From the IMG/VR virus record IMGVR_UViG_2693429774_000015: 12,203 bases of DNA; one strand, 5' to 3'. The notes under the pieces were generated by a model. The model was not told the origin of the DNA and did no database searches. It saw only the letters and a program-made list of their open reading frames with translations. This DNA comes from a virus. Its lineage: Duplodnaviria > Heunggongvirae > Uroviricota > Caudoviricetes. Positions within the stretch are counted from its first letter, which is position 1, and every line of letters begins with the position of its first letter. Below are positions 5,576 to 12,203 of the stretch, piece after piece. Made by a program: the position numbers and the translations under genes.

Positions 5576-8500
5576 TAATAACCTGCGCCTGCAGGTCATT
5601 CTTAATGCGGTTGACAAACTCACCCGCCCATTCCGTGCTGCACAGGCCAGTTCGAAAGAGCTGGCTGGCGCAATTCAGAATACCCGAAACAGTCTCAAAG
5701 AACTGAATAAGCAGGCTGGCAGAATTGATGAATTTCGCAAGACGCGCTCGCAACTAGCCATAACAGCCAACAACCTGAACGCAGCCCGCGAAGAGGCGGC
5801 AAAACTCGCCACACAATTTGCTGCCACTAACAGGCCAACCGCCGCGCAGGCAAAGTTATTCAGTCAGGCCAAAACACGAGTACAGGAACTTCAGCAGACC
5901 TATAACGGCTTGTTGGGGGCGGTCCAGAGACAACGTCAGGCACTTAAAGAATCAGGGATTGATACCAGACAACTCAGTAGTGCCCAGCGTGAACTTAAGA
6001 AAAATGCTGAAGAAACAAGGCAGGCACTGGAGGGCCAGCAAAAAGCACTTAAGCGTCTGGGTGAACAACAGGCACGGATGAACGCTGCCAGAGAACAATA
6101 CTCAAGACGGCTTGAAGTGCGCGATCGCATCGCAGGAGCCGGAGCCACTACTACGGCTGCAGGGCTGGCAATGGGTGCGCCAGTGATGGCAGCAGTAAAA
6201 AACTATACCAGCATGGAAGATGCCATGAAAGGTGTGGCAAAGCAGGTCAATGGTCTGCGTGACGATAATGGCAAGCGCACTGCACGTTTTTATGAAATGC
6301 AGGATGCCATCAAGGCTGCCAGCGAACAGCTGCCGATGGAAAACGGTGCGGTGGACTTCGCTGCACTGGTTGAAGGTGGTGCGCGCATGAACGTCGCAAA
6401 CCCTGACGACAGCTGGGAAGATCAGAAACGTGACCTGCTGGCCTTCGCCAGTACGGCAGCAAAGGCGGCAACAGCCTTTGAGCTGCCAGCGGATGAACTG
6501 TCAGAAAGTCTGGGGAAAATCGCCCAGCTCTACAAAATACCTACCCGCAATATTGAACAGCTCGGCGATGCGCTGAACTATCTGGATGATAACGCCATGT
6601 CGAAAGGGGCGGACATCATTGATGTCATGCAACGTCTGGGCGGTGTGGCTGACCGTCTGGATTATCGTAAAGCGGCGGCACTGGGTTCCACCTTTCTGAC
6701 ACTGGGCGCTGCGCCGGAGGTTGCAGCCAGTGCAGCAAACGCGATGGTGCGTGAATTGTCCATTGCCACCATGCAAAGCAAGAGTTTCTTTGAAGGGATG
6801 AATCTGCTGAAACTCAATCCTGAAGTGATTGAAAAGCAGATGACAAAGGATGCGATGGGAACTATCCAGCGTGTGCTGGAGAAGGTGAACGCACTGCCGC
6901 AGGACAAGCGTCTGTCTGCCATGACCATGTTGTTTGGTAAAGAGTTTGGTGATGACGCGGCGAAACTGGCAAACAACCTTCCGGAACTGCAGCGCCAGCT
7001 AAAACTGACAGCGGGCAATGATGCGCTCGGTTCCATGCAGAAAGAATCAGACATCAACAAAGACTCACTTTCTGCTCAGTGGTTGCTGGTCAAAACCGGA
7101 GCGCAGAACACCTTCAGCAGCCTGGGTGAAACGCTGCGCCAGCCGCTGATGGATATTCTGTACACGGTGAAAAGCATCACGGGGGCGTTGCGCCGCTGGG
7201 TGGAAACTAACCCGGAACTGACAGGCACACTGATGAAAGTAGCGGCTATTGTGGCTGCGGTTACCGTAGGCCTCGGCACCTTAGCGGTGGCGCTGGCTGC
7301 AGTGCTGGGGCCGCTGGCAGTGATCCGTCTGGGATTCTCTGTGCTGGGTATCAAAACGTTACCTTCCGTTACGGCAGCAGTAACACTAACCAGCAGCGCG
7401 TTGTCCTGGCTGGCTGGCGCACCACTGGCACTGCTGCGACGCCGGCTTACTTCATCGGGTAACGCAGCGGGTTTACTTACTGCGCCGTTGTCGTCTTTGC
7501 GTCGCACGGCATCACTGACGGGAAATGTCCTGAAAACTGTAGCAGGGGCGCCGGTTGCACTATTGCGGTCTGGATTATCCGGTTTACGTGCTGTTGCTGT
7601 GATGTTTATGAATCCTCTGGCGGTACTGCGCGGTGGACTGGCTGCCGCAGGCGCGGTGCTTCGTGTGCTTGCATCTGGTCCGCTGGCGATGCTGCGCGTT
7701 GCCCTGTATGCCATATCTGGTCTGTTAGGCGCTCTGCTCAGTCCGATAGGTCTTGTGGTTACTGCACTGGCGGGCGTGGCGCTGGTTGTCTGGAAATACT
7801 GGCAACCCATCACCGCATTTCTCGGTGGCGTGGTGGAAGGATTCAAAGCGGCGGCAGGTCCCGTCAGTGCTGCATTCGAACCACTTAAGCCTGTGTTTCA
7901 GTGGATTGGCGACAAAGTGCAGGCGCTGTGGGGCTGGTTTACTGATCTACTGACGCCCGTTAAGTCGACCTCTGCCGAACTGCAGAGTGCAGCGGCAATG
8001 GGGCGGAGATTCGGGGAGGCACTGGCGGAAGGGCTGAATATGGTCATGCATCCGCTGGACTCCCTGAAATCCGGCGTTTCTTGGTTGCTGGAGAAACTCG
8101 GCATTGTCAGTAAAGAGGCTGCAAAGGCGAAACTGCCGGAAAGCGTGACGCGTCAGCAACCTGCGACGGTGAATGCAGACGGTAAAGTGATGATTCCATC
8201 GGGTGGTTTTCCGTCATGGGGATATGGCTTTGCGGGGATGTATGACAGCGGCGGCTATATCCCGCGCGGGCAGTTTGGCATCGTCGGTGAAAACGGGCCG
8301 GAAATTGTTAACGGCCCGGCAAATGTGACCAGCCGGAGAAATACAGCTGCACTGGCTGCTGTTGTTGCCGGAATGATGGGCGTTGCTGCCGCGCCAGCAG
8401 AGCTTCCACCATTGCACCCTTTGGCACTTCCCGTGAAAGGTGGAGAAGCAATTGTGAGTCGCGCAGCCACTGTGCCGCCCGTTTACAGGATTGAGGCACC

Positions 8501-8645
8501 GACGCAGATCATCATCCAGACGCAGCCAGGACAAAGTGCGCAGGATATTGCGCGGGAGGTGGCCCGCCAGCTTGATGAACGTGAACGCAGGCTGAAGGCA
8601 AAAGCCAGGAGTAACTACAGCGATCAGGGGGGATACGACGCATGA
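5568..8645 (+). CDS. T: Tail tape measure protein (P2 gpT homologue)
   Basis: 1025-aa ORF after E/E'; coiled-coil-like Q/A/R/K-rich N-terminal half, then a long Ala/Leu/Gly-rich hydrophobic repeat segment; position and size class typical of tape measure proteins. Confidence 0.9.
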   Translation: MNDNNLRLQVILNAVDKLTRPFRAAQASSKELAGAIQNTRNSLKELNKQAGRIDEFRKTRSQLAITANNLNAAREEAAKLATQFAATNRPTAAQAKLFSQAKTRVQELQQTYNGLLGAVQRQRQALKESGIDTRQLSSAQRELKKNAEETRQALEGQQKALKRLGEQQARMNAAREQYSRRLEVRDRIAGAGATTTAAGLAMGAPVMAAVKNYTSMEDAMKGVAKQVNGLRDDNGKRTARFYEMQDAIKAASEQLPMENGAVDFAALVEGGARMNVANPDDSWEDQKRDLLAFASTAAKAATAFELPADELSESLGKIAQLYKIPTRNIEQLGDALNYLDDNAMSKGADIIDVMQRLGGVADRLDYRKAAALGSTFLTLGAAPEVAASAANAMVRELSIATMQSKSFFEGMNLLKLNPEVIEKQMTKDAMGTIQRVLEKVNALPQDKRLSAMTMLFGKEFGDDAAKLANNLPELQRQLKLTAGNDALGSMQKESDINKDSLSAQWLLVKTGAQNTFSSLGETLRQPLMDILYTVKSITGALRRWVETNPELTGTLMKVAAIVAAVTVGLGTLAVALAAVLGPLAVIRLGFSVLGIKTLPSVTAAVTLTSSALSWLAGAPLALLRRRLTSSGNAAGLLTAPLSSLRRTASLTGNVLKTVAGAPVALLRSGLSGLRAVAVMFMNPLAVLRGGLAAAGAVLRVLASGPLAMLRVALYAISGLLGALLSPIGLVVTALAGVALVVWKYWQPITAFLGGVVEGFKAAAGPVSAAFEPLKPVFQWIGDKVQALWGWFTDLLTPVKSTSAELQSAAAMGRRFGEALAEGLNMVMHPLDSLKSGVSWLLEKLGIVSKEAAKAKLPESVTRQQPATVNADGKVMIPSGGFPSWGYGFAGMYDSGGYIPRGQFGIVGENGPEIVNGPANVTSRRNTAALAAVVAGMMGVAAAPAELPPLHPLALPVKGGEAIVSRAATVPPVYRIEAPTQIIIQTQPGQSAQDIAREVARQLDERERRLKAKARSNYSDQGGYDA

Positions 8646-9127
8646 TGATGGTGCTGGGATTGTACGTGTTTATGCTGCGCACTGTGCCGTATCAGGAACT
8701 GCAGTATCAACGCAGCTGGCGACATGCGGCAAACAGCCTGGTCAACCGACGTCCGTCCACGCAGTTTCTGGGACCGGACAACGATATGCTGACGCTTTCT
8801 GGTGTTCTTATGCCGGAGATAACGGGCGGCAGGCTGTCGTTGCTGGCTCTGGAGCAGATGGCAGAACAGGGAAAAGCATGGCCCCTGATTGAAGGCAGTG
8901 GCACGATTTACGGCATGTATGTGATTGAGGGACTGAATCAGACTAAAACGGAGTTTTTCCGCGATGGTATGCCGCGCCGGCTTGAGTTCACCCTGTCGCT
9001 CAAACGGGTGGATGAATCCCTGTCCGATATGTTCGGTGATCTCAGTGCGCAGCTGAATAATTTGCAGGATACGGCAACGTCTGCCTTAAGCGATATCAGT
9101 AAAACGGTGGGAGGGCTGCTGTCGTGA
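8642..9127 (+). CDS. U: Tail protein U (P2 gpU homologue)
   Basis: 161-aa ORF; start overlaps the T stop (ATGA); sequence MMMVLGLYVFM...GKAWPLIEGSGTIYGMYVI...RVDESL matches remembered P2 gpU. Confidence 0.85.
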   Translation: MMMVLGLYVFMLRTVPYQELQYQRSWRHAANSLVNRRPSTQFLGPDNDMLTLSGVLMPEITGGRLSLLALEQMAEQGKAWPLIEGSGTIYGMYVIEGLNQTKTEFFRDGMPRRLEFTLSLKRVDESLSDMFGDLSAQLNNLQDTATSALSDISKTVGGLLS

Positions 9128-10224
9128 ATTTCAGCTCTGAACTGCTTAACAAAGGCAACAAAACTCCCGCATTCAGCATCAGTATTGAGGGGAAGGATAT
9201 AACCACTGTGCTGGATAACCGCCTGATGAGTCTGACGCTGACGGACAATCGGGGCTTTGAAGCAGACCAGCTTGATCTGGAGCTGGACGACGCCGACGGA
9301 AAAATCGTGCTGCCGCGCCGTGGTGCGGTCATCACGCTGGCGCTGGGCTGGAAGGGGCAGCCACTTTTCCCGAAAGGGGCATTCACGGTGGACGAGATTG
9401 AACACACTGGCGCACCGGATCGCCTGACTATCCGGGCGCGAAGTGCTGATTTTCGTGAAACTCTGAATACCCGCCGTGAAAAGTCGTGGCACAAGACCAC
9501 CGTCGGGGAAGTGGTGAAGGAAATAGCCGTACGTCACAAGCTGAAGATGGCACTGGGTAAAGACATGTCGGATAAGCCCGTGGAGCATATAGACCAGACT
9601 AATGAGAGTGACGGCAGTTTTCTGATGCGGCTGGCGCGCCAGTACGGTGCTATTGCGTCGGTGAAAAATGGCAATCTGTTATTCATCCGGCAGGGACAGG
9701 GTAAAAGTGCCAGCGGTAAACCACTGCCGGTGATCACTATCACACGTAAGGACGGCGACAGTCACCGCTTTACCCTGGCAGATCGCGGAGCCTATACGGG
9801 CGTAATTGCCAGTTGGTTGCATACCCGCGAACCCGCGAAGAAAGAAAGCACAACGGTGAAGCGTAAGCGCAGGACTAAGAAGCAGAAGAAAGAGCCGGAA
9901 GCGAAGCAGGGCGATTACCTGGTGGGTACGGATGAAAACGTGCTGGTACTTAATCGCACTTATGCCAACCGGAGCAACGCTGAACGGGCAGCGAAAATGC
10001 AGTGGGAACGCCTGCAACGCGGCGTTGCGTCGTTCTCGCTACAACTGGCGGAAGGTCGGGCAGATCTCTACACGGAAATGCCAGTGAAAGTCAGTGGTTT
10101 TAAACAGCCGATAGATGATGCGGAATGGACCATTACGACTCTGACACATACCGTCAGCCCGGATAACGGTTTTACAACCAGTATTGAACTCGAAGTGAAG
10201 ATTGATGATCTTGAAATGGAATAA
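9124..10224 (+). CDS. D: Tail protein D (P2 gpD homologue); GTG start overlapping the U stop
   Basis: 366-aa ORF; last gene of the tail operon before ogr; GTGA start/stop overlap seen at 9124-9127. Confidence 0.85.
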   Translation: MNFSSELLNKGNKTPAFSISIEGKDITTVLDNRLMSLTLTDNRGFEADQLDLELDDADGKIVLPRRGAVITLALGWKGQPLFPKGAFTVDEIEHTGAPDRLTIRARSADFRETLNTRREKSWHKTTVGEVVKEIAVRHKLKMALGKDMSDKPVEHIDQTNESDGSFLMRLARQYGAIASVKNGNLLFIRQGQGKSASGKPLPVITITRKDGDSHRFTLADRGAYTGVIASWLHTREPAKKESTTVKRKRRTKKQKKEPEAKQGDYLVGTDENVLVLNRTYANRSNAERAAKMQWERLQRGVASFSLQLAEGRADLYTEMPVKVSGFKQPIDDAEWTITTLTHTVSPDNGFTTSIELEVKIDDLEME

Positions 10225-10256
10225 GGTGTTCTCAATATTGATATTTTGTGTATCAT

Positions 10257-10262
10257 TACAAT
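10257..10262 (+). promoter_or_regulatory. Candidate -10 hexamer (TACAAT) for the ogr promoter
   Basis: AT-rich D-ogr intergenic region with TACAAT about 30 nt upstream of the ogr ATG; no good -35 at 17 bp spacing, so weak evidence. Confidence 0.25.
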
Positions 10263-10292
10263 GATTCTGATAGCAAAGGTAGGGATCTGGAT

Positions 10293-10511
10293 ATGATGAA
10301 TTGTCCAAAGTGTGGTCATGCGGCACACACAAGGAGCAGTTTTCAAGTAACTGAAAGCACCAAAGAGCGTTACTGCCAGTGCCAAAATATTAACTGCGGG
10401 AGCACTTTTGTTACCCATGAAACAGTGGTCCGGTTTATTGTGACACCCGCACTGATTGCTACTGCTCCTCCACATCCATTGCCAGGTGGTCAGGGGCATA
10501 TGAATTTTTGA
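10293..10511 (+). CDS. ogr: Ogr/Delta-type zinc-finger late transcription activator (start chosen at the MMNCPKCG methionine, not the upstream ATG at 10248)
   Basis: MNCPKCGHAAHTRSS...KERYCQCQNINCGSTF...HPLPGGQ matches the P2 Ogr C-x2-C...C-x4-C zinc-finger pattern and length (72 aa) from memory; AGGTAGGG RBS upstream. Confidence 0.85.
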   Translation: MMNCPKCGHAAHTRSSFQVTESTKERYCQCQNINCGSTFVTHETVVRFIVTPALIATAPPHPLPGGQGHMNF

Positions 10512-10518
10512 GAAAGAG

Positions 10519-10539
10519 AACCTGCTACGGCAGGTTTTT
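10519..10539. terminator. Rho-independent terminator shared by convergent ogr and the moron gene
   Basis: AACCTGC-TACG-GCAGGTT hairpin followed by TTTTT on the plus strand, with an A-run before it; it overlaps the stop codon of the minus-strand ORF. Confidence 0.5.
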
Positions 10540-11020
10540 ATTCATCTGGGATCTCACCCGTTTCAAGAAAATGTATAAAGCCAGGCTCATCTATGATGAT
10601 TGTGCCTTTCATCCTGGCTGCCGATACTTTTGATGGGCCTGCATTGTAACCGCAACAGAGCATCTGAAGGCTTTGGGTTACAGAGGTTCTTACCGTTAAT
10701 CCTTGTTCATTCGCCTTATCAACCAATCTTTCTTTATCTGCTTTCTTAAATCCGGTAAAACACACATCGAATGTATTTTTTTTCGGACCTGACTGCTTAG
10801 TGAGATGTGAGTAGTTTTCGGGGAGGAATGACGCGCATTCCTGAATGGCTTGTTCTGGTGAATCGTACTGTTTAAGAATGCGGTCTTTTCGGAAGGTTTT
10901 TATTCGAACGGTGTTCTTACAAATGCCCTGTATATGATTTTCGCTATAACTGATGCTCTGTATAGAGTGAACACCTATACGACCATTTGCATTGATGTAA
11001 ACAAAGTGAAGTTCTTCCAT
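10538..11020 (-). CDS. Moron: hypothetical 160-aa protein with WYL-like N-terminal region (tentative) and C-terminal BRCT domain
   Basis: Intact ORF with AAGAGG RBS 7 nt before the ATG; opposite orientation to the phage late genes; visibly AT-richer than neighbours (by eye, not computed). C-terminal DVCFTGF...GLTVRTSVTQSLQMLCCGYNAGPSKVSAARMKGTIIIDEPGFIHFL follows the BRCT pattern seen in LigA C-termini; N-terminal region ends ...RIKTFRKDRI, like the R-x-F-R-x-D-R-I signature of WYL domains. Domain calls are from memory, not searched. Confidence 0.6.
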   Translation of the reverse strand: MEELHFVYINANGRIGVHSIQSISYSENHIQGICKNTVRIKTFRKDRILKQYDSPEQAIQECASFLPENYSHLTKQSGPKKNTFDVCFTGFKKADKERLVDKANEQGLTVRTSVTQSLQMLCCGYNAGPSKVSAARMKGTIIIDEPGFIHFLETGEIPDE

Positions 11021-11143: not shown

Positions 11144-11506
11144 TGGTGGAGCTGGCGGGAGTTGAACCCGCGTCCGAAATTCCTACATCCTCGGTACTAC
11201 ATGCTTAGTCAGTCTTTACATTCGCTTGCCAGCTGCGGACGGACACGCCACTAACAAACTAGCCTGATTAAGTTTTAACGCTTCAACCCCAGGCAGGGCT
11301 TCCACGCGATCTCTTTTGGGTTTGACCTCTCTTGATCCCCGTCCTAAGAGCGGAGGCTAGGGAGAGAGGGCTCTAAGCAGGTTATTAAGCTGCTAAAGCG
11401 TAGTTTTCGTCGTTTGCGACTATTTTTTGCGGCTTTTTACGAGGCCAACCGCCCCTCGGCATGCACCTTGGGTTTCGCAAATCCCGTCGAATCCAGAATC
11501 AGCCCC
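11144..11506 (-). ncRNA. ssrA: tmRNA (transfer-messenger RNA, SsrA), 363 nt
   Basis: Reverse complement runs GGGGCTGATTCTGGATTCGACGGG ... GGGTTCAACTCCCGCCAGCTCCACCA and matches the E. coli tmRNA sequence as I remember it, including the tag-template region. Confidence 0.95.
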
Positions 11507-11720: not shown

Positions 11721-12203
11721 TTAACGGTGGGCGTTTTTCATGATACGTGCTTTATCCACCTGCCATTCGCGCTCTTTGATATCTGAACGTTTATCGTGCT
11801 GTTTCTTACCTTTGGCGACGCCGATTTTCACTTTGCACCAGGCATTTTTCCAGTACAGGGAGAGCGCCACTACGGTATAGCCTTCTCGATTGACGCGACC
11901 GTACAATGAGTCCAGTTCGCGCTGGTTGAGAAGTAACTTGCGGGTACGGGTAGGATCGCACACCACATGCGTGGAGGCCACGGCCATTGGCGTGATGTTA
12001 GCGCCAAACAGAAATGCCTCTCCGTCACGCAGAAGGACGTAGCTGTCGCTGATATTGGCTTTTCCTGCGCGCAGGGATTTAACTTCCCAGCCTTGCAGGG
12101 CAAGTCCCGCTTCGAACTCTTCTTCGATAAAGTATTCGTGACGGGCGCGCTTGTTAAGCGCGATGGTCGCTGAACCAGGTTTATGTGCTTTTTTCTTCGT
12201 CAT
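11721..12203 (-). CDS. smpB: SsrA-binding protein SmpB (complete; start codon is the last 3 bases of the window)
   Basis: 160-aa [67 protein letters not shown]... matches E. coli SmpB from memory; conserved smpB-ssrA synteny. Confidence 0.95.

Follow-up and report, generated by a model that had tools for sequence, protein, structure and literature searches.

The window analysed here, a 12,203-nt stretch of DNA from a virus of the Caudoviricetes (IMG/VR record IMGVR_UViG_2693429774_000015), contains a gene T whose predicted tail tape measure protein (TMP) carries a tandem array of proline-initiated units. The array is located between two transmembrane-grade helices, upstream of a family-wide KYWxPIxAFxxG anchor, varies in length across the family, and occurs in natural alleles that differ in unit number. 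Taken as a whole, these observations are probably best explained by an old helical array that would constitute a length-variable module of the TMP, with a role both in the tape and at the membrane.

Gene T and its proline-initiated array

Gene T is a single ORF that follows the tail assembly chaperone pair E/E' and precedes the tail-tip genes U and D, within the sheath-tube operon (Table 1). Its product matched TIGR01760 tape_meas_TP901 over the full profile (aa 200-567, 311.1 bits, cut-off 28.8), PF10145 PhageMin_Tail (aa 246-457, 67.5 bits, cut-off 33.2) and phrog_28 (E = 7e-208), and the gene is 96.6% identical at the nucleotide level to that of the annotated TMP of Escherichia phage Cartapus. 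The ORF thus encodes a TMP of the P2 gpT type (P2/Fels-2 type). The E/E' arrangement is identical to that annotated in P2, 186 and Fels-2, and the proteins encoded by E and E' are probable binding partners of the TMP. When the entire T protein was searched against PDB sequences, no match was obtained at E ≤ 0.01. The N-terminal 190 aa showed a hydrophobicity period of 3.45 aa (power 127.8, shuffle threshold 76), and this part of the protein gave weak matches to SMC/Rad50 coiled coils. In a comparison with the TMP of Klebsiella phage 4LV2017, 79 of the 100 residues in aa 51-150 were different and aa 251-500 were identical. An antisense ORF (7076-7846, minus strand, 256 aa), a possible alternative to gene T, was dismissed as a shadow ORF, because the T frame has strong homology throughout and the third codon positions of the two frames coincide.

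As the initial annotation had supposed, the 1025-aa product is longer than the T protein of P2, which has 815 aa. About half of the 210-aa excess falls within the hydrophobic block, and the distance from the first hydrophobic helix to the KYW anchor is 192 aa in the T product versus 80 aa in P2.

Table 1 Features of the T region (nucleotide positions in the window; aa positions in the T product)
Feature	Position	Strand	Remarks
Sheath gene	3387-4559		
Tube gene	4569-5084		
Tail assembly chaperone gene E	5139-5441	+	PF10109 Phage_TAC_7 / PF06528 Phage_P2_GpE matches for the E/E' pair
Tail assembly chaperone gene E'	5456-5575	+	PF10109 Phage_TAC_7 / PF06528 Phage_P2_GpE matches for the E/E' pair
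Gene T, predicted TMP	5568-8645	+	1025 aa
N-terminal coiled-coil part of TMP	5568-6137	+	aa 1-190; hydrophobicity period 3.45 aa
First transmembrane-grade helix	7239-7310	+	aa 558-581; Hessa minimum -0.6; Kyte-Doolittle 19-mer peak 2.39
Units u0 and u0'	7311-7421	+	u0, aa 582-598, PLAVIRLGFSVLGIKTL, family-wide GP[LIM]Ax[LM][RK] unit; u0', aa 599-618, degenerate
D2 direct repeat copies	starts 7311, 7422, 7614, 7680	+	
Central expansion	7422-7679	+	aa 619-639, 640-661, 662-682, 683-704; two 43-aa double units
D6 direct repeats	7613-7646 / 7679-7712	+	76% identical, 66 nt apart
Conserved penultimate unit	7680-7742	+	aa 705-725, PLAMLRVALYAISGLLGALLS
Last unit, with second transmembrane-grade helix	7743-7805	+	aa 726-746; Hessa minimum 0.5 (aa 722-741); Kyte-Doolittle 2.42
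Anchor motif, closing the block	7794-7841	+	aa 743-758, KYWQPITAFLGGVVEG; regex [KRQ][YF]WxP[ILV]xxF
Gene U	8642-9127		
Gene D	9124-10224		

All of the peptides initially quoted as repeat units were found in the protein: GAPLALLRRRL at aa 617-627, GAPVALLRSGL at 660-670, NPLAVLRGGL at 682-691 and GPLAMLRVAL at 704-713. The periodic units are genuine, but the range first proposed for them, roughly residues 540-740, was too wide: aa 555-581 form a plain hydrophobic helix, and the repeats themselves begin at aa 582 and end near aa 746 (nt 7311-7805). Ala and Leu account for 20% and 21%, respectively, of aa 601-700. The prolines within aa 575-770 lie at 582, 599, 619, 640, 662, 683, 705, 726, 747 and 765, giving nine intervals of 17, 20, 21, 22, 21, 22, 21, 21 and 18 aa, and each proline from aa 582 to 765 starts a unit of 17-22 aa. 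The consensus unit, P-L-A-x-L-R-x-x-L-x-x-x-G..., has about 21 residues, with Pro first and Arg at position 6. The motif P[LV][AS]x[LI]R occurs six times (aa 582, 619, 640, 662, 683 and 705) and is absent from the rest of the protein; across 20000 shuffles of aa 541-745 its mean count was 0.012 and its maximum 2, none reaching six. BLOSUM62 autocorrelation of aa 575-770 peaked at lag 43 (z = 7.1-7.4, 0 of 2000 shuffles), indicating that the repeat unit is a 21 + 22-aa double, with further signals at lags 64 (z = 4.0), 21 (z = 3.2) and 22 (z = 3.0). The same analysis of control regions from the middle and C-terminal parts of the T product revealed nothing comparable.

Transmembrane propensity was scored using a hand-coded Hessa scale and Kyte-Doolittle hydropathy. 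Of the 19-residue windows of the T product, those at aa 558-581 and at 722-741 were the only ones with a Hessa sum below 1. For the units of the central expansion (aa 619-704), the sum was 8-15 kcal/mol per unit; the repeat units contain 1-3 Arg/Lys each. A membrane-inserting region had been suggested for the whole segment; on this scale the two flanking helices are hydrophobic enough, but the repeat units are far from transmembrane. Aa 551-765 contain 11 R, 5 K, 1 E and 0 D (16 R/K versus one acidic residue), and aromatic residues are rare in aa 582-725. The helical amphipathicity of aa 582-725 is marginal (power 52.8 at the 3.6-aa period, threshold 58), and no coiled-coil heptad period (~3.5 aa) was detected there, the peaks at 3.6, 7.2 and 5.35 aa all lying below the 95% shuffle threshold. 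An AF2 model of aa 529-800, built from a 25-row alignment, was helical throughout, and several of the prolines in aa 662-726 coincided with breaks between helices; its mean pLDDT of 47 and pTM of 0.22 make it uninformative on packing, and it was used for helix boundaries only.

Age of the repeat and natural unit-number alleles

TRF analysis of positions 5500-8700 with a minimum score of 30 identified no tandem array, and the third codon positions of the array showed no periodicity, placing the repeat at the protein level. The direct DNA repeats in the array (D2 and D6) are just 17-34 nt long and 76-82% identical. Nucleotide identity at lag 129 was 37.7% (z = 3.7), a value reached by 29 of 2000 codon shuffles. 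Periodicity, which the initial annotation had expected at the nucleotide or protein level, is therefore clear in the protein (lag 43) and weak in the DNA. The two 43-aa double units share 35% amino acid identity and 39% nucleotide identity; nucleotide identity of the 129-nt double units ranged from 31 to 40%, with the same codon at just 7 of 34 identical residues. The central repeat array is genuine but old.

Relatives with 82-98% identity carry in-register length changes of -86, -64, -22, +11 and +22 aa with respect to the 1025-aa form, giving an allelic series of TMP lengths of 935, 961, 1003, 1025, 1036 and 1047 aa and supporting the earlier description of the segment as recombination-prone. 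The -64, -22, +11 and +22 aa variants map to the central expansion. In the +22 allele, a 66-nt segment is duplicated exactly and in tandem; in the +11 allele (P0146), an 11-aa half-unit is duplicated. The -22 allele joins CCTCTGGCG to ATGCTGCGC inside the D6/D2 repeats, forming a microhomology junction, and a D2 copy spacing of 192 nt equals the size of the -64 aa allele. Each unit starts with a short CCNCTGGCN...CTGCG repeat, and unit number would change when these repeats slip or exchange unequally, with D6 and D2 as the likely substrates for gain and loss. The -64, -22 and +22 alleles are located in complete late operons. Some of the variants may belong to prophages with defects in other regions.

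The 1025-aa form is dominant, with clusters of 1625 and 9661 member sequences versus 1-3 for the variant clusters. Roughly one in five complete E. coli genomes contains prophages of this type. Among the ~1019 complete E. coli genomes with the region, one had the -22 junction, and the +22 junction had no full-length match among the matches listed. A count of 337 for the +22 junction in these genomes is meaningless because 85% of the query length can be aligned to the wild type at 93.5% identity, and five apparently full -64 junction matches were likewise wild type, each consisting of two pieces 192 nt apart. Unit-number variants are rare, and the block is therefore not hypervariable.

The block across the TMP family and in other systems

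Among 55 family representatives, the block ranges from 65 to 242 aa and its length correlates with that of the TMP (r = 0.79, p = 8e-13), the blocks of P2 and 186 being minimal at 80-81 aa. The anchor pattern matches in 55 full-length representatives, including P2 (KYWEPVSAFFGG) and 186. In the relatives displayed, a hydrophobic helix comparable to aa 558-581 precedes the block. The u0 motif occurs at the equivalent place in distant relatives as PLALLRFS, PMAIMRFS and PIAAMRLS, the penultimate unit occurs as PLxLLRxAL...GxLLS in Fels-2 and several 40-55% identical relatives (P0245, P0256, P0260), and the last unit has near-invariant G, L, V, A, W and K columns (alignment A1). The first unit and the last two probably represent the family ground plan, to which the central four units (aa 619-704) would have been added as an old lineage-specific expansion by duplication of a ground-plan unit. 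The block of P0315 has its own Pro-delimited units of 18-22 aa (top lags 43 and 22), that of P0284 has about five 18-aa units, and that of P0366 contains a module duplication; other lineages thus enlarged the same block independently, each with its own repeats. In the phrog_28 alignment, 251 query residues face 115 profile positions. Judged from these sequences, no other module of these TMPs contributes as much to length differences within the family as this block, with most length variation falling between the two conserved helices. In a homologue search with aa 501-811, the matches listed were all of at most 545 aa, fragments or fusions. An apparent hotspot of fusion breakpoints at TMP aa 592-716 was rejected, its range being explained by the length limit on matches and by their ranking.

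Fels-2 STM2697, a gpT-like tail protein (Felsduovirus), is 82% identical over its whole length, lies in the same operon at the same ssrA-side prophage end, and has both hydrophobic helices, the first and penultimate PLAxLR units and the KYWQPISAFLGG anchor. It differs in having 935 aa, lacking exactly aa 609-694 of the window protein; this 86-aa block is in-register, overlaps the central units and corresponds to two 43-aa double units. The DNA of SopEPhi, RE2010 and SEN8 matches from window position 7656 and not before, and the short form is apparently present here too. P2 gpT and 186 gpG (812 aa) share the gene position, the N-terminus (aa 4 to ~180) and the C-terminal half, which starts at the last hydrophobic helix and includes the anchor. 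Their block, however, has 2 R/K, no PLAxLR unit and three plain hydrophobic stretches, and their central TP901-type core is too divergent for tblastn alignment.

Variable-number 11-aa units have been described in siphophage TMPs (Belcaid et al. 2011, PMC3271669), and deletions in the TMP repeats and in a hydrophobic region of TP901-1 shorten the tail (Mahony et al. 2016, PMC5099701). The siphophage 11- and 18-aa repeats are likewise tandem helical units whose copy number varies by duplication and loss (PMC3271669, PMC5099701), but they are marked by Trp/Phe, whereas the array described here is marked by Pro/Arg, has a period of 21/22/43 aa and is located in the hydrophobic module of a contractile-tail TMP. 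Variable unit number between related phages, as in repeats of the Belcaid type, is present in this TMP; an 11-aa (or 11-11-18) period with fixed Trp/Phe was not found in the array (lag 11, z = 1.0). The array is another example of the known internal repeats of TMPs and an ordinary feature of such proteins.

Exchangeable apolipoproteins contain tandem helices of ~22 residues (2 x 11) punctuated by proline. The TMP units resemble these by analogy only, in their ~22-residue Pro-punctuated helices and in the 11-aa half-unit allele; there is no homology, and the TMP units have no acidic residues and are therefore not class-A amphipathic helices. To our knowledge, no Pro-punctuated basic repeat array has been reported for T4 gp29. 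This contractile-tail TMP is comparable in having an N-terminal coiled coil followed by a predicted TM segment; a part in forming an inner-membrane channel has been ascribed to that segment, and many TMPs contain TM segments (bioRxiv 10.64898/2026.03.06.709160). Sequence similarity to gp29 is not detectable, with no PDB sequence match for the T protein although the preprint reports deposited TMP structures (bioRxiv 10.64898/2026.03.06.709160).

Assembly, tail length and membrane entry

During assembly, the helical array would form part of the tape within the tail tube, and the E/E' chaperones would keep it soluble. Repeat number would then be expected to affect tail length, and the 86 aa by which the protein exceeds that of Fels-2 should therefore add ~13 nm, or roughly three tube/sheath rings. 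Following sheath contraction, the module would exit the tube and act at the membrane: the two hydrophobic helices would enter the inner membrane, and the basic amphipathic units may lie on the membrane or bridge to it, helping to form a conduit for DNA. For MLG42, which has the long form, a published table gives a tail of 234 nm, a head of 128 nm and a 31-kb genome, an entry that is internally inconsistent. Its tail/head ratio is 1.82, lower than the ~2.1 calculated from that table for the majority of 186-type phages, and if the figures were accepted as they stand they would speak against a longer tail. In the literature on electron microscopy of Elveevirus, Cartapus, 4LV2017, KP12 and RE-2010, no usable tail length was found.

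The block could instead be mainly a docking surface for gpE/gpE+E', with unit-bound chaperones solubilising the module and recruiting tube subunits, a role in assembly and not in length or membrane entry. E and E' lie directly upstream of T, and similar helices at regular intervals would be well suited to binding a partner repeatedly. Mahony et al. suggested that hydrophobic TMP stretches bind chaperones, because TP901-1 remained almost as infective once its second hydrophobic region had been removed (PMC5099701). However, Fels-2 (-86 aa) and P2 (80-aa block with 2 R/K) have homologous E/E' and no central units, and the extra units are therefore unnecessary for chaperone function, which leaves this reading unlikely.

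Somewhat less likely again is that the central units form a spacer that is neutral and merely tolerated. They would then have arisen as a by-product when a low-complexity helix rich in Ala, Leu and Gly underwent slippage, and would have no effect on length or at the membrane, for example by being folded back in the tube. Functional relatives lack these units, among them Fels-2, a viable phage with a TMP of 935 aa; block length varies widely across the family, and the MLG42 tail/head ratio is not raised. In contrast, all six motif positions (P, L/V, L/I, R) are retained in P0165 (~85% identical), four of the six are kept under the strict pattern in the MLG42 TMP (83% identical), and repeated residues use different codons between units, which together indicate purifying selection on each unit. 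The dominance of the 1025-aa form over the variant clusters also speaks against neutrality.

By analogy with the apolipoproteins, the Pro-punctuated, acid-free basic helices might serve as lipid-surface or periplasm-spanning elements whose copy number tunes the reach from tube tip to inner membrane and not tail length, a proposal to which we give a low probability. If true, the block would be an adaptive module answering differences in host envelope. As context, several P2-like lineages expanded this block independently, with 22-aa, 18-aa and module repeats. The view that there is no genuine repeat and that the pattern arose by chance from a composition rich in Ala, Leu, Gly and Arg, although in keeping with the negative TRF result and the 76-82% identity of the short DNA repeats, is refuted by the composition-preserving motif-count and lag-43 shuffles, disagrees with the regular proline spacing and with natural indels of whole or half units, and is extremely improbable.

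With the combined tape and membrane role remaining the preferred explanation, the practical value of the array is modest. The allelic series differs only by whole repeat units in the hydrophobic module, and provides a ready test of whether the hydrophobic part of a contractile-tail TMP counts towards tail length, and of whether the spacing of the two membrane helices matters for DNA delivery. A defined variable block is also useful for annotating and engineering P2-like tails and tailocins.

Prophage setting and identity of T

This window covers the right-hand end of a prophage of P2/Fels-2 type. Since ssrA and smpB lie just past Ogr, its insertion site is ssrA, as it is for Fels-2. The large ORF matches TIGR01760 (tape_meas_TP901) at 311 bits, together with PF10145 and phrog_28, confirming its initial annotation as a tape measure protein (TMP), and its product, T, is indeed longer than P2 gpT (1025 vs 815 aa). 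In DNA, the gene is 96.6% identical to its annotated tape measure counterpart in Escherichia phage Cartapus, and Klebsiella Elveevirus phages match 86% of its length at about 97%; of 5426 complete E. coli genomes, 1019 contain the repeat-bearing region (7300-7820). An antisense ORF over the repeat region (7076-7846, minus strand, 256 aa, TTG start) showed no evidence for a gene and was rejected as a shadow ORF, of which the observed coincidence of its third codon positions with those of T is expected in GC-rich Ala/Leu-coding DNA.

Features of the window
Feature	Coordinates	Strand	Remark
Tail-fibre-assembly ORF	40-366	+	around invertase-type genes
Tail-fibre-assembly ORF	338-766	-	around invertase-type genes
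Fibre-tip ORF	768-1103	-	around invertase-type genes
First resolvase-type gene	1125-1685		186 aa
Tail-fibre-assembly ORF	1551-2144	-	around invertase-type genes
Fibre-tip ORF	2144-2650	-	around invertase-type genes
Second invertase	2672-3244		190 aa, complete
Sheath	3387-4559		Pfam
Tube	4569-5084		Pfam
Chaperone E	5139-5441		Pfam
E'	5456-5575		Pfam
Large ORF (T)	5568-8645	+	1025 aa, follows E'
gpU	8642-9127		Pfam
gpD	9124-10224		Pfam
Ogr	about 10248-10511		Pfam
ORF between Ogr and ssrA	10538-11020	-	160 aa, 41% GC stretch
tmRNA gene ssrA	11144-11506	-	tag ANDENYALAA
smpB	11721-12203	-	

At the 5' end, the first resolvase-type gene is enclosed by a 391-nt inverted repeat (98% complementary, arms 1-391 and 1526-1916), the second arm of which overlaps the 3' end of the gene; the gene product gave no HTH_7 match. 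With its two invertase-type genes and fibre ORFs, this end resembles an invertible tail-fibre cassette, either rearranged or double. The 160-aa ORF, which had no Pfam matches and also accompanies the prophage carrying the -22 allele of T (22 aa shorter), may be a phage-borne cargo gene.

A protein-level repeat between two hydrophobic helices

All four peptides initially quoted as repeat units were located in T. The pattern P[LV][AS]x[LI]R matches six times (aa 582, 619, 640, 662, 683 and 705) and nowhere else in T, compared with a mean of 0.012 and never more than two matches in shuffles of aa 541-745. Each proline within aa 575-770 (582, 599, 619, 640, 662, 683, 705, 726, 747 and 765) starts a unit, with spacings of 17-22 aa. 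Motif-free BLOSUM62 autocorrelation of this region is highest at lag 43 (z = 7.1; 0 of 2000 shuffles), followed by lags 64, 21 and 22 (z = 3-4), and nothing comparable was seen in control regions from the middle and C-terminus of T. The periodicity is thus real, chance being excluded by both motif count and lag-43 autocorrelation, and its actual repeating element is a double unit of 43 aa (21 + 22) in three copies (aa 619-661, 662-704 and 705-747), preceded by a degenerate copy (aa 582-618).

The repeat is at the protein level. TRF found no tandem array, DNA identity between double units is 31-40%, the same codon is used at just 7 of 34 identical residues, and third codon positions of the repeat show no periodicity. 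At a lag of 129 nt, DNA identity is just marginally raised (z = 3.7; 29 of 2000 codon shuffles). The surviving DNA trace consists of D2 and D6, direct repeats of 17-34 nt where units start.

A membrane-inserting role had been suggested for the segment. Just two 19-residue windows reach transmembrane grade on the Hessa scale, both in the flanking helices (aa 558-581 and 722-741); the central units (aa 619-704) do not, with sums of 8-15 kcal/mol. These sums and the charge of aa 551-765 (11 Arg, 5 Lys, 1 Glu, 0 Asp) therefore point to a basic, weakly amphipathic linker joining two hydrophobic helices, not stacked membrane spans. The AF2 model is all-helical, with several breaks at unit prolines (aa 662-726) and a mean pLDDT of 47, too low for inferring packing. 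Coiled-coil analysis, also proposed initially, found no such period in the repeat region, and a clear one of 3.45 aa in the N-terminal 190 aa. The array is helical, Pro-punctuated and basic, inside the length-variable block of the TMP hydrophobic module.

An exhaustive search that used aa 540-800 as query and no profile returned 624 proteins, and 55 full-length representatives, P2 and 186 included, share a common ground plan: a hydrophobic helix, GP[LIM]Ax[LM][RK], a basic block of variable length, often a PLxLLRxAL...LLS unit, and a last hydrophobic helix closing with KYWxPIxAFFxG. Block length, from first helix to KYW anchor, is 65-242 aa and tracks the overall length of the TMP (r = 0.79, p = 8e-13, 55 representatives); it is 192 aa in T, with P2 and 186 minimal (80-81 aa, 2 R/K). 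In phrog_28, 115 profile positions align to 251 residues of the segment. Other lineages fill the corresponding block with their own repeats: among homologues, P0315 has Pro-delimited units of 18-22 aa (top lags 43 and 22), P0284 18-aa units and P0366 a duplicated module of ~120 aa.

Natural length alleles and mosaicism of T

Over their whole length, T and the Fels-2 gpT-like protein are 82% identical; the Fels-2 protein has 935 aa and lacks exactly aa 609-694 of T, 86 aa or two double units. DNA matches of SopEPhi, RE2010 and SEN8 start only at 7656, consistent with their carrying the Fels-2-like short form. Among 120 relatives at 84% identity or more, in-frame indels of at least 6 aa included a loss of aa 619-682 (-64), a change of +11, and changes of -22 in three proteins and of +22 in six, all of these within aa 619-708; further large indels, located elsewhere, were -28, +45, +114, +125 and -6. 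In the +22 allele, 66 nt are duplicated exactly in tandem; the -22 allele is a junction between the two D6 copies, seen in one complete E. coli genome. Unit gain and loss thus occurs at short direct repeats, bearing out the suspicion that the segment is recombination-prone. Late operons are otherwise complete around the -64, -22 and +22 alleles. Such variants are rare, the 1025-aa clusters holding 1625 and 9661 member sequences. The homologue P0165 (about 85% identical) keeps six of six motifs and MLG42 (83%) four under the strict pattern, its other two units being substituted; this retention fits purifying selection on the units.

The -28 aa allele P0149 (MEDA|IKAASE) coincides with the direct repeat D3, whose 22-nt copies (6213-6234 and 6297-6318) are 84 nt apart and 77% identical; short direct repeats therefore give rise to in-frame deletions in the core region of TP901 type as well.

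The N-terminal coiled-coil segment (aa 51-170, about 5718-6080) is mosaic: over aa 51-150, 79 of 100 positions differ from the Klebsiella 4LV2017 protein, which elsewhere is 97-100% identical, and a 4LV2017-like version also occurs in the E. coli alleles P0158 and P0239. Residues 885-935 (about 8220-8372; GMYDSGGYIPRGQFGIVGENGPEIVNGPANVTSRR...) are 55-69% identical to TMP C-termini of unrelated Vibrio, Pseudomonas and Xanthomonas siphophages; alleles of 1139 aa in E. coli and E. fergusonii contain them twice, the second copy being diverged (+114 aa). In many E. coli genomes, in-frame fusions (P0028-P0120) join 57-183 N-terminal residues of a different P2-like protein (CII, gpV, sheath, gpL, gpJ or resolvase) to the C-terminal 310-430 aa of the TMP, which fall within aa 592-1025 of T; the range of breakpoints is biased by the search tool. 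The fusions, some of them annotated 'tolA' or 'CII family', resemble what prophage deletions would leave behind when the 3' portion of T is kept along with U and D.

Tail length and use of the alleles

In other phages TMP length sets tail length, and TP901-1 tails become shorter when TMP repeats or a hydrophobic region are deleted (PMC5099701). TMP units undergo duplication and loss (PMC3271669), TMP length variation arises partly from tandem repeats (PMC13585406), and TMP transmembrane segments are widespread, one in T4 being implicated in inner-membrane channel formation (bioRxiv 10.64898/2026.03.06.709160). Because TMP length sets tail length in other phages, the 86 extra residues, as alpha-helix, would lengthen the tail by about 13 nm, roughly three rings. 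Ring rise is about 4 nm. Chaperone docking and a neutral spacer are rival roles for the array. The only long-form phage with EM figures is MLG42 (tail 234 nm, head 128 nm), compared with means of about 156 and 71 nm in 186-type phages; its figures are not trustworthy, since a genome of 31 kb would not plausibly need a 128-nm head. Its ratio of tail to head is not raised.

The Pro/Arg-marked repeat is a real further example of internal TMP repeats, ordinary in kind. Described TMP units are 11 or 18 aa and aromatic, whereas those of T are 21, 22 or 43 aa, Pro/Arg-marked, and differently located, between two predicted membrane helices of a contractile-tail TMP. Its main use is as a natural allelic series of T.
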